6,054 nucleotides of DNA. Source: a virus (Duplodnaviria > Heunggongvirae > Uroviricota > Caudoviricetes). Positions 1,694 through 2,332 of the stretch are shown here, piece after piece (position 1 is the first letter of the stretch; every line of letters begins with the position of its first letter). The DNA lies in the IMG/VR virus record IMGVR_UViG_2537561509_000007, one strand, 5' to 3'. A program made the translations under genes and the position numbers. The notes under the pieces were generated by a model. It was not told the origin of the DNA. It saw only the letters and a list, made by a program, of their open reading frames with translations, and made no database searches.

Positions 1694-2332
1694 ATGGAAT
1701 TTAAAGATTTACCTCCTTCAATCCAGGAGATTGCAGCACACACACTTCGTCATCGTCTGAACGAACTTGAATTGGAATCGGTAACGAAAAAAGACACTGA
1801 TAATATGGCTCGTAATGTGCGCGATGCGTTTACCGGATTGTATTTCTGTGCGTCTATAAATAAACACGACTCAGAGAGTGTGGCAAATAAAATTGCAGAA
1901 ACGACAGCGCAAAACATCAATACGAAACCAACGGAAGAAGAAATTGATCAGTTTGCTCATGATGCTGGTTTAAAAAACAAGAAAGAAAAATCGCCATATG
2001 CGGGGAACATGTTTGTTTATGACAATCTCATCAGAATTCGTGGCGAAATTCCGGCGGAATACCTGGCAAGAGTCCATCAGGCATTGCTTAAAAATTTGGA
2101 AACAGAATTATTTGATGGCAACACTAACGGTTTCTTCATGGTATCAGGCCTTGAGAAAGACTGGGATGCAGAAAAACGCTGGAATGTTGCTACATGGTTA
2201 TTCAGTAACAGAGCCGCTGCACTGGAAGCTTCGGCATGTATTTGCGGCCTGTTCTTAACAGACCACAAATATAATCTGGATGTGTACAGTTATATTTACG
2301 CTGAACACGGTCCACTCTGGATTGACTGGTAA
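1694..2332 (+). CDS. Hypothetical protein, 212 aa, no recognisable domain
   Basis: ORF 1682..2332. I prefer the ATG at 1694 (MEFKDLPPSIQ...) because GAGG (1684..1687) lies 6 nt upstream. It starts 11 nt after the ydfA-like stop, so it is probably co-transcribed. No transmembrane segment or catalytic motif is apparent to me. The sequence looks AT-richer than the flanking genes (impression, not computed). Confidence 0.8.
   Translation: MEFKDLPPSIQEIAAHTLRHRLNELELESVTKKDTDNMARNVRDAFTGLYFCASINKHDSESVANKIAETTAQNINTKPTEEEIDQFAHDAGLKNKKEKSPYAGNMFVYDNLIRIRGEIPAEYLARVHQALLKNLETELFDGNTNGFFMVSGLEKDWDAEKRWNVATWLFSNRAAALEASACICGLFLTDHKYNLDVYSYIYAEHGPLWIDW

Follow-up and report, generated by a model that had tools for sequence, protein, structure and literature searches.

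A conserved convergent gene pair in a hypervariable slot of a dicBF-type prophage operon

In pore-forming colicin operons, the colicin gene shares an SOS-repressed operon with a convergent immunity gene. Other accessory functions, such as SieB-Esc (lambda/P22) and BstA-aba, lie in or near the early-left/immunity region of temperate phages and follow a logic in which a phage must have a matching escape function to grow lytically itself. The self-immunity of BstA is a DNA element (aba), not a protein (PMC8585504). In the Qin prophage of Escherichia coli K-12, a promoter upstream of ydfA that is repressed by DicA drives ydfABC-dicF-dicB (PMC10448788; PMC5069750), and operons of this dicBF type carry the host-directed toxic products DicF and DicB (PMC5069750). 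Here, we describe a gene of 212 amino acids (aa), referred to as A, and a small convergent open reading frame (ORF), referred to as B, between ydfA and dicF in the caudoviral IMG/VR record IMGVR_UViG_2537561509_000007. The stretch analyzed (the window; 6,054 nt) matches a defective lambdoid prophage of E. coli O157:H7 (NZ_CP062761.1) at 100% identity. The C-terminal domain of A (C-domain) and B form a deeply conserved convergent pair that is inherited as a unit. This pair resembles accessory hot spots, effector/immunity cassettes, and defense with self-immunity, but fails sequence and fold membership for all of these. An earlier prediction made from the sequence alone (the original prediction) had singled out A as its leading candidate for an undescribed function; A is indeed an intact uncharacterized gene, but its modularity, its convergent partner, and the hypervariable nature of the slot had been missed.

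The stop codons of A and B abut in the E. coli loci L012, L013, and L014 as they do in the window (Table 1). Salmonella prophages with the C-domain have a different backbone, with an integrase and a helix-turn-helix (HTH) repressor on the minus strand and Cox on the plus strand. The C-domain gene lies next after cox, and its 3' end shares 11 or 53 nt with a convergent ORF of 64–69 aa. These small Salmonella ORFs are 42–53% identical to B, with the common pattern IEKQIEC..QL..SGLLK...F..KL...GRRGPAG..L. The pairing survives C-domain divergence to 30–37% identity and different N-terminal fusions, and every C-domain architecture has a convergent B-family ORF with stop codons that abut or overlap by 0, 11, or 53 nt. 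All 97 B-type small ORFs face a C-domain. Among the small ORFs anchored on the conserved leader of B (described below), all 23 of the B type (S1), with 17 distinct partner sequences, face a C-domain protein, and none of the other eight types does. In a reverse survey of 80 viral contigs encoding the C-domain, a convergent abutting B was found in 74 (74 of the 78 with room downstream); two others end at the contig edge, one is rearranged inside the C-domain, and three have a B deletion. These three contigs have one internal deletion in common, and their A is intact. This recurrent deletion (L213, L219, and L223, at about 2850–2990) removes the part of B between its start region and its last ~10 codons and adds "FKG" to the large protein. 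The A-only class, which ends in "...WIDWFKG", is common in E. coli (e.g., P0063 with 110 member sequences). Overall, A is seen without B, but B is never seen without a C-domain.

Among 5426 complete E. coli genomes, B is present in 597, compared with 568 that have full-length A. The ratio of nonsynonymous to synonymous substitution rates (dN/dS) of B is 0.04–0.28, indicating purifying selection as a protein, and its 51 clusters are found in Escherichia and Salmonella. In the window, A is predicted to be soluble and acidic, with an isoelectric point (pI) of 5.1. The opposite charges are kept in all three lineages (pI of 4.6–5.2 for A, 4.7–4.9 for the C-domain, and 9.4–9.9 for B), and both proteins are hydrophilic (grand average of hydropathicity of B, −0.53).

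A is a real gene under purifying selection. As predicted, it is a 212-aa ORF with a good Shine-Dalgarno (SD) sequence: the reading frame is intact from the ATG at 1694 to the TAA at 2330–2332, GAGG lies 5 nt upstream, and the RefSeq start agrees. An alternative in-frame ATG at 1682 overlaps the ydfA stop codon; the homologs all start with MEFKDLP. Matches to A were found in 843 of the 5426 genomes, covering at least 80% of its length in 568, and the annotation is always "hypothetical protein". The combination of poor conservation with frameshifted homologs that might be expected of a spurious gene is not the pattern found: a search of 5.8 billion proteins gave 153 clusters, from Escherichia and a few Salmonella, and down to about 65% identity the clusters span all of A and have no frameshifts. 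The dN/dS (pairwise Nei-Gojobori) is 0.24–0.29 for the whole gene, 0.16–0.20 for the C-domain, and about 0.48 for the N-terminal module (N-module). Because of the 568 genomes with full-length copies, the 153 clusters, and the low dN/dS, A is more than a chance ORF. The truncated recE and int of this prophage, together with frameshifts in some copies of A (P0121 and P0122), could suggest a non-functional or decaying remnant of a defective prophage. However, such a remnant is effectively excluded by the dN/dS of 0.16–0.29, the hundreds of intact copies, the full-length conservation to 65% identity, and the distant homolog family in Salmonella.

A combines a constant module, the N-terminal hairpin, with a C-terminal alpha/beta domain that varies and is specific to the cassette. 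When 1.84 billion representatives were scanned exhaustively with HMMER for homologs of A, 55 matches were obtained, about 45 of which match only residues 1 to about 55–90. The N-module-only proteins have 42–201 aa and unrelated C-termini, and one of them is a 147-aa protein of 933W-like Shiga toxin (Stx) phages. A 5212-aa protein retrieved by the same search was rejected as spurious, being a repetitive coiled coil of eukaryotic appearance. The N-module is also common to PHROGs 1363, 9419, 6937, and 33007, and its conserved core is a ~52-residue helix-loop-helix that starts with MEFKDLP throughout (alignment A6). Alignment A1 shows high conservation over the C-terminal 113 residues, two main alleles of the N-terminal 66 residues, and deletions of 4 and 12 residues in the linker. 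The C-domain has invariant residues across alignments A2/A3 and is confined to Escherichia and Salmonella; only two other representatives carry it, both from Salmonella. In Salmonella P0153 (220 aa), the C-domain follows a different N-terminus. In P0140 (286 aa; a cluster of 19 members, on dozens of contigs), a P0153-type N-terminus is followed by an inserted CI-like HTH, 41% identical to the N-terminus of the window's repressor, and then the C-domain. This 286-aa form, which is found directly after cox in loci L015–L017, L020, and L021 (8001–8861 in L015), is an accessory protein of the early operon that has acquired a DNA-binding domain resembling that of a repressor. Salmonella loci L018 and L019 encode the C-domain on its own (MRLTMESKQ...), with a distinct N-module gene further along.

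The full-length AlphaFold model of A has a predicted local distance difference test (pLDDT) score of 64, with four N-terminal helices, including those of the N-module at residues 8–24 and 32–55, and a beta/alpha C-domain. A model of residues 91–212 with the Salmonella relatives in the alignment has a pLDDT of 77.9 and a predicted template modeling (TM) score of 0.73. The predicted fold of the C-domain is a beta-beta-alpha-beta-beta-alpha-beta sandwich of ~110 residues, for which the closest comparison is with ACT/ferredoxin-like alpha+beta sandwich domains; it resembles ACT-type regulatory domains at low Z only. A Prp/YsxB-like cysteine protease, suggested by weak BFVD matches (TM 0.35–0.47), was rejected for want of a conserved catalytic His-Cys dyad: the Salmonella branch does not keep the Cys and His residues of the E. 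coli type.

As had been predicted, A has no recognizable domain. It matched no Pfam-A family at E ≤ 0.1 and no NCBIfam family at E ≤ 1, its PDB sequence searches were negative, and no specific fold match was found. B and the N-module likewise had no match in Pfam, NCBIfam, PADLOC, and PDB sequence searches, nor did the N-module alignment match Pfam-A or NCBIfam. No PADLOC-DB 2.0 defense family was found for A, B, or YdfA at E ≤ 1. A marginal PDB match of A to Noc (E = 0.04) did not recur when the N-module profile was used. An HTH is absent from the window's A, with HTH_3 (E = 8e-6) found only in the 286-aa Salmonella relatives. The sole family of A is PHROG 2151 (E = 1.8e-147; residues 1–212 against profile positions 1–212 of 212), and B is a full-length member of PHROG 4274 (E = 1.4e-51). 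The family of A is therefore already cataloged (as "Ybl81" in some records), without function; the records of PHROG 2151, PHROG 4274, and "Ybl81" are catalog entries without function, structure, or literature. Literature searches on A and its family, including the PHROG numbers and DUF1391, returned nothing relevant. These results support the expectation that A is not among the conserved core genes of known role. No earlier description of the modular architecture, the convergent pair, the leader, or the cassette polymorphism was found, and the sequences are known as hypothetical proteins.

The slot is polymorphic and hypervariable, with matched A/B alleles. In E. coli O104:H4, window positions 1902–2536 are replaced by 308 unrelated bases, and this allele encodes an N-module protein that ends in a different C-terminus, together with an unrelated ORF of 64 aa that is convergent to it. 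Further strains carry still other alleles in the slot. A leader-pattern scan of IMG/VR gave 120 loci. All loci analyzed contain 142 leader copies in total. A small ORF of at least 30 aa follows 55 of the 142 copies, representing at least nine unrelated types, and most types other than B have their own distinct partner C-terminus. The further types, at least eight in number and all preceded by the same conserved leader (L009, L011, L004, L024, L086, L098, L103, L114, and L116), include two zinc-ribbon types, a 75-aa type (MINAEQLEKE...), and types of 94, 99, and 101 aa; none has a known function, and two of them correspond to PHROGs 10133 and 4987. Salmonella locus L018 (4219–5210 and 1236–2562) has two tandem units of leader and small ORF and a stand-alone C-domain; its downstream Phage_ASH genes contain C4 antisense RNA three times and isrK twice.

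The K-12 Qin slot also lies between ydfA and dicF in the operon and is likewise followed by the hairpin element. However, it has no A-like sequence, and it has no convergent small ORF because the part of the leader with the SD and ATG is missing. The homology between the window and K-12 ends at 1673 and restarts at 2602 (blastn). Qin does have ydfB (42 aa) and ydfC (72 aa) after ydfA, as the original prediction stated, but A is allelic to ydfC only, because ydfB coexists with A in loci L012 and L013. YdfB and YdfC (translated from b1572 and b1573) have no resemblance to A.

One explanation for these patterns is that A and B are independent accessory genes within one recombination block, with A being, for example, an anti-defense factor or a host-factor binder and B a moron. 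Lambdoid genomes are mosaic, and both genes lie between two conserved recombination anchors. Furthermore, N-module proteins without a convergent partner occur in Stx phages, and the partners in the S4 and S5 cassettes lack the N-module. However, the adjacency is kept at 30–37% (C-domain) and 42–53% (B) identity, in another backbone, and with four N-terminal architectures. The stop-to-stop geometry is kept throughout, and the C-domain and B families are equally narrow in taxonomy. Independence of the two genes is thus improbable, though it deserves consideration.

In its sequence features, B is an independent transcription unit, and its leader is predicted to be able to mask the ribosome-binding site. 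A −10-like hexamer lies at a fixed distance of 7–8 nt from hairpin 1 of the leader, even in unrelated upstream backgrounds, where its variants include TATAGG, TATAAC, and TTGAGA-17-GATAAT (the last a good match). The promoter-like site of B is presumably active. The CUCCAU/AUGGAG pairing is kept in all 15 aligned leaders with an ORF and is broken in K-12, which has no ORF. In the window, folding of the B-sense RNA gives z = −2.89, a value that 0 of 200 shuffles equaled, compared with z = −0.96 for the opposite strand. The leader matches no Rfam family, and no terminator-like site was found between the A and B transcription units. In K-12 (locus L001), the hairpin element is at 2516–2638 on the minus strand, upstream of dicF. 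Two other explanations of the hairpins were considered. The RNase III site of the 190-nt DicF was rejected, as that end lies ~137 nt upstream of DicF, near 2743, and not at 2579–2629. DicF was also expected in the Salmonella loci as a reason for the hairpin conservation, and none was found there at the Rfam gathering threshold.

We tentatively favor, with somewhat less than even confidence, the hypothesis that A and B are a matched lysogeny/lytic protein pair in which A counteracts B. B would be made from its own promoter at a low, controlled level while the prophage is repressed, and A would be made only on derepression of the early operon, the transcription of which would run head-on into the B unit. 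The two transcription units would collide because no terminator-like site lies between them. The acidic C-domain of A may bind and neutralize the cognate basic B, and the constant N-terminal hairpin may provide a function common to all cassettes, such as oligomerization, lability, or docking to a common partner. The pair would then consist of an active factor and its matched antidote, with an exclusion or defense-type function and cognate self-immunity. The presence of A without B, but never of B without the C-domain, is the pattern expected of an orphan antidote. Together with the opposite charges and the putatively masked ribosome-binding site of B, this pattern favors B as the active factor and A as the neutralizer.

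Several points weigh against this hypothesis. Linkage alone could account for the co-variation of the A C-terminus and B, as the two share a recombination block. The A-only class derives largely from one deletion, such that there are few independent observations for the asymmetry. B has no membrane segment or known effector fold, and its promoter-like site matches 8 of 12 consensus positions, which is below the scan threshold. Moreover, hairpins 1 and 2 persist in K-12-like loci without a small ORF (87 of the 142 copies), and folding energies leave the strand of hairpin 2 ambiguous, so that the hairpins may instead serve the sense dicBF transcript. The published work on K-12 covers the sense strand only (PMC10448788).

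Alternatively, the polarity may be reversed, although we regard this as unlikely. The C-domain of A would then be an early-lytic effector (host takeover or toxic) and B a constitutive antidote for lysogens, guarding against leaky A or against the same effector from heteroimmune relatives, as in the logic of pore-forming colicins. The same pairing, orientation, and cassette data fit this explanation. A shares an operon with the toxic host-directed DicF and DicB (PMC5069750). In addition, the convergent placement of B inside an inducible operon is the colicin/immunity layout. However, intact A is widespread after B deletion (P0063, 110 members), and B is never found alone; the antidote is normally the member of such a pair that survives as an orphan. 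A masked ribosome-binding site would also be odd for a constitutive protector, and A has no toxin-like domain.

The original prediction that A is co-transcribed from a repressor-controlled promoter is very probably correct. The roles that it raised for genes in such operons, namely superinfection exclusion, abortive infection, and host takeover, are candidate functions of A. A promoter-like site and an operator-like palindrome precede ydfA, and the scan of the window found no terminator-like site between the early promoter and A. The palindrome and promoter-like site have the layout expected of an OL/PL-type repressor-controlled early promoter, and we infer that the promoter at 1322–1350 is active and that the palindrome is bound by the repressor. 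The candidate operator pattern, ATGTTTT-N5/6-AAAACAT, occurs in the cro/cI divergent region as well as at the early-operon −35.

Another possibility is that A and B regulate the lysis-lysogeny or dicBF circuit as a module. In this case, A would be CII-like or antirepressor-like, with the C-domain serving oligomerization or sensing, and B would counter-regulate the early operon, by antisense action or DNA binding of its transcript or protein. The common Salmonella form has a CI-like HTH (41% identical to the window repressor) before the C-domain and follows cox; in phage 186, the position directly after cox is that of cII. The low-Z resemblance of the C-domain fold to ACT-type regulatory domains and the putative transcription of B antisense to the early operon, with no terminator between, are also consistent with regulation. 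However, the window's A and most family members have no DNA-binding domain, and B is under purifying selection as a protein. Furthermore, a core-decision regulator is not expected to swap among at least nine unrelated alleles or to be absent in K-12. A regulatory module thus seems distinctly unlikely.

With the matched pair as the favored hypothesis, the locus can be compared with the known systems. Similar to colicin and polymorphic-toxin cassettes, A and B have an inducible repressor-controlled operon, a constant N-terminus with an exchangeable C-terminus, many matched alleles, and a small cognate-looking convergent gene directly downstream, the promoter of which is putative in the case of B. 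However, A has no colicin, translocation, or toxin (cytotoxic) domains, both proteins appear to be cytoplasmic with no sign of export, and the orphan pattern suggests that the large protein is the antidote. Moreover, colicin immunity is a membrane protein, whereas B appears soluble and is basic. SieB-Esc and BstA-aba are comparable in their location and in the need for a matched escape function, but have no sequence or fold relation to A and B, and SieB is a membrane protein. Compared with defense systems, B has no PADLOC match, and its defense role is putative. Type II toxin-antitoxin systems also combine a small basic protein with an acidic partner, in tight linkage and with orphan "antidote" copies. 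However, their operons are co-directional, whereas A and B are convergent, stop to stop, and lack toxin-antitoxin Pfam domains. Unlike in type II systems, the acidic A could not continuously neutralize B in a lysogen, because A sits in a repressed phage operon.

It is possible, though we lean against it, that the slot represents an undescribed class of polymorphic prophage conflict modules. Each module would combine a convergent small effector with a matched anti-effector, in at least nine types, with cassettes exchanged between the N-hairpin coding and structured-leader anchors and with expression toggled by the lysogeny/lytic switch. If so, a matched protein-pair family would be added to the prophage-encoded conflict systems, and the strain-to-strain variability of the promoter-proximal part of dicBF-type operons would be explained. 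If the pairing is functional, it offers a compact and experimentally tractable module, in which two small soluble proteins are combined with a single promoter switch and a single leader. About 10% of complete E. coli genomes carry this module, among them those of O157:H7, O26, O111, and O121 Stx-producing strains, and it also occurs in Salmonella. The conserved anchors provide a sequence handle for mining cassettes, and the leader pattern alone gave nine small-ORF types. Even if its role is regulatory, the locus bears on the silencing of the toxic dicF/dicB products of cryptic prophages.

Table 1. Features of the window, with the A/B locus first.
Feature	Position	Strand	Basis or remark
Gene A, 212 aa	1694–2332	+	WP_000394548.1; PHROG 2151
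SD sequence of A, GAGG	1685–1688	+	Read from sequence; 5 nt upstream of ATG
N-module of A, residues 1–66	1694–1891	+	Conserved core ~1–52; two-helix hairpin starting MEFKDLP
Linker of A, residues 67–99	1892–1990	+	Acidic, indel-prone; model helices at lower confidence
C-domain of A, residues 100–212	1991–2332	+	Acidic; conserved FDGxxNGxF loop
ORF B, 69 aa, basic (pI 9.7)	2333–2542	−	WP_001133037.1; PHROG 4274; 0 nt gap to A stop
SD sequence of B, GGAGG	2548–2552	−	5 nt before ATG 2542–2540
Exchangeable cassette relative to O104:H4 allele	1902–2536		Part of A coding for linker and C-domain, nearly all of B; blastn junctions, locus L004
Conserved leader of B	2543–2629	−	Alignment, RNAalifold
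Leader hairpin 1, CCGGA-N12-TCCGG	2629–2608	−	Invariant
Leader hairpin 2	2602–2579	−	At least 5 different fully compensated stems
Anti-SD CUCCAU	2578–2573	−	Complementary to AUGGAG of ribosome-binding site, 2554–2549
B promoter-like site	2637–2665	−	TTTTCA (2665–2660), 17-nt spacer, TAAACT (2642–2637); 7 nt before hairpin 1
Operator-like palindrome ATGTTTTGATAAAAAAACAT	1303–1322		Abuts −35 of early-operon promoter; related copies 582–600, 536–554
Sigma-70 promoter-like site TTGACC-17-TAAACT	1322–1350	+	Consensus scan; positional equivalent of dicBp/PL
cro-like gene	265–555	−	
CI/LexA-like repressor ORF (HTH + S24, 212 aa)	599–1237	+	
ydfA homolog (DUF1391)	1449–1682 (RefSeq start 1530)	+	Pfam PF07151, E = 1.2e-29; PHROG 751
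DicF small RNA, same operon, downstream of A	2881–2932	+	Rfam RF00039, 75 bits
dicB	3107–3295	+	Pfam PF05358, E = 6e-37
DUF1482 gene	3292–3480	+	
recE remnant	3573–4817	+	
Integrase remnant	4799–5350	+	

Among the other genes in the window, recE is truncated (a 414-aa ORF, compared with about 750–860 aa in intact relatives) and runs into the N-terminally truncated integrase gene, which is followed by a DinI-like gene at 5528–5770. Because recE and int are truncated and the prophage is defective, a contribution of the early operon to phage production is unlikely in this case. The repressor ORF encodes a complete 212-aa CI-like protein, with an HTH at residues ~9–67 and a Peptidase_S24 domain, and RefSeq annotates only 899–1237 of it, as a 112-aa "LexA family protein". 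Given this complete ORF, the prophage may still have a full, RecA-cleavable repressor. The ydfA ORF reaches 27 codons upstream of its annotated start at 1530, and PHROG 751 covers residues 10–77. The N-terminal extension of YdfA (...FNNYAAGFCSATPALRGNEVNM...) is conserved at the protein level in locus L114, and the longer form may be the real one. Finally, loci L011 and L012 have a RelB/RelE toxin-antitoxin pair between the repressor gene and ydfA (about 1448–1929), and this interval is a further accessory insertion site in the same operon.

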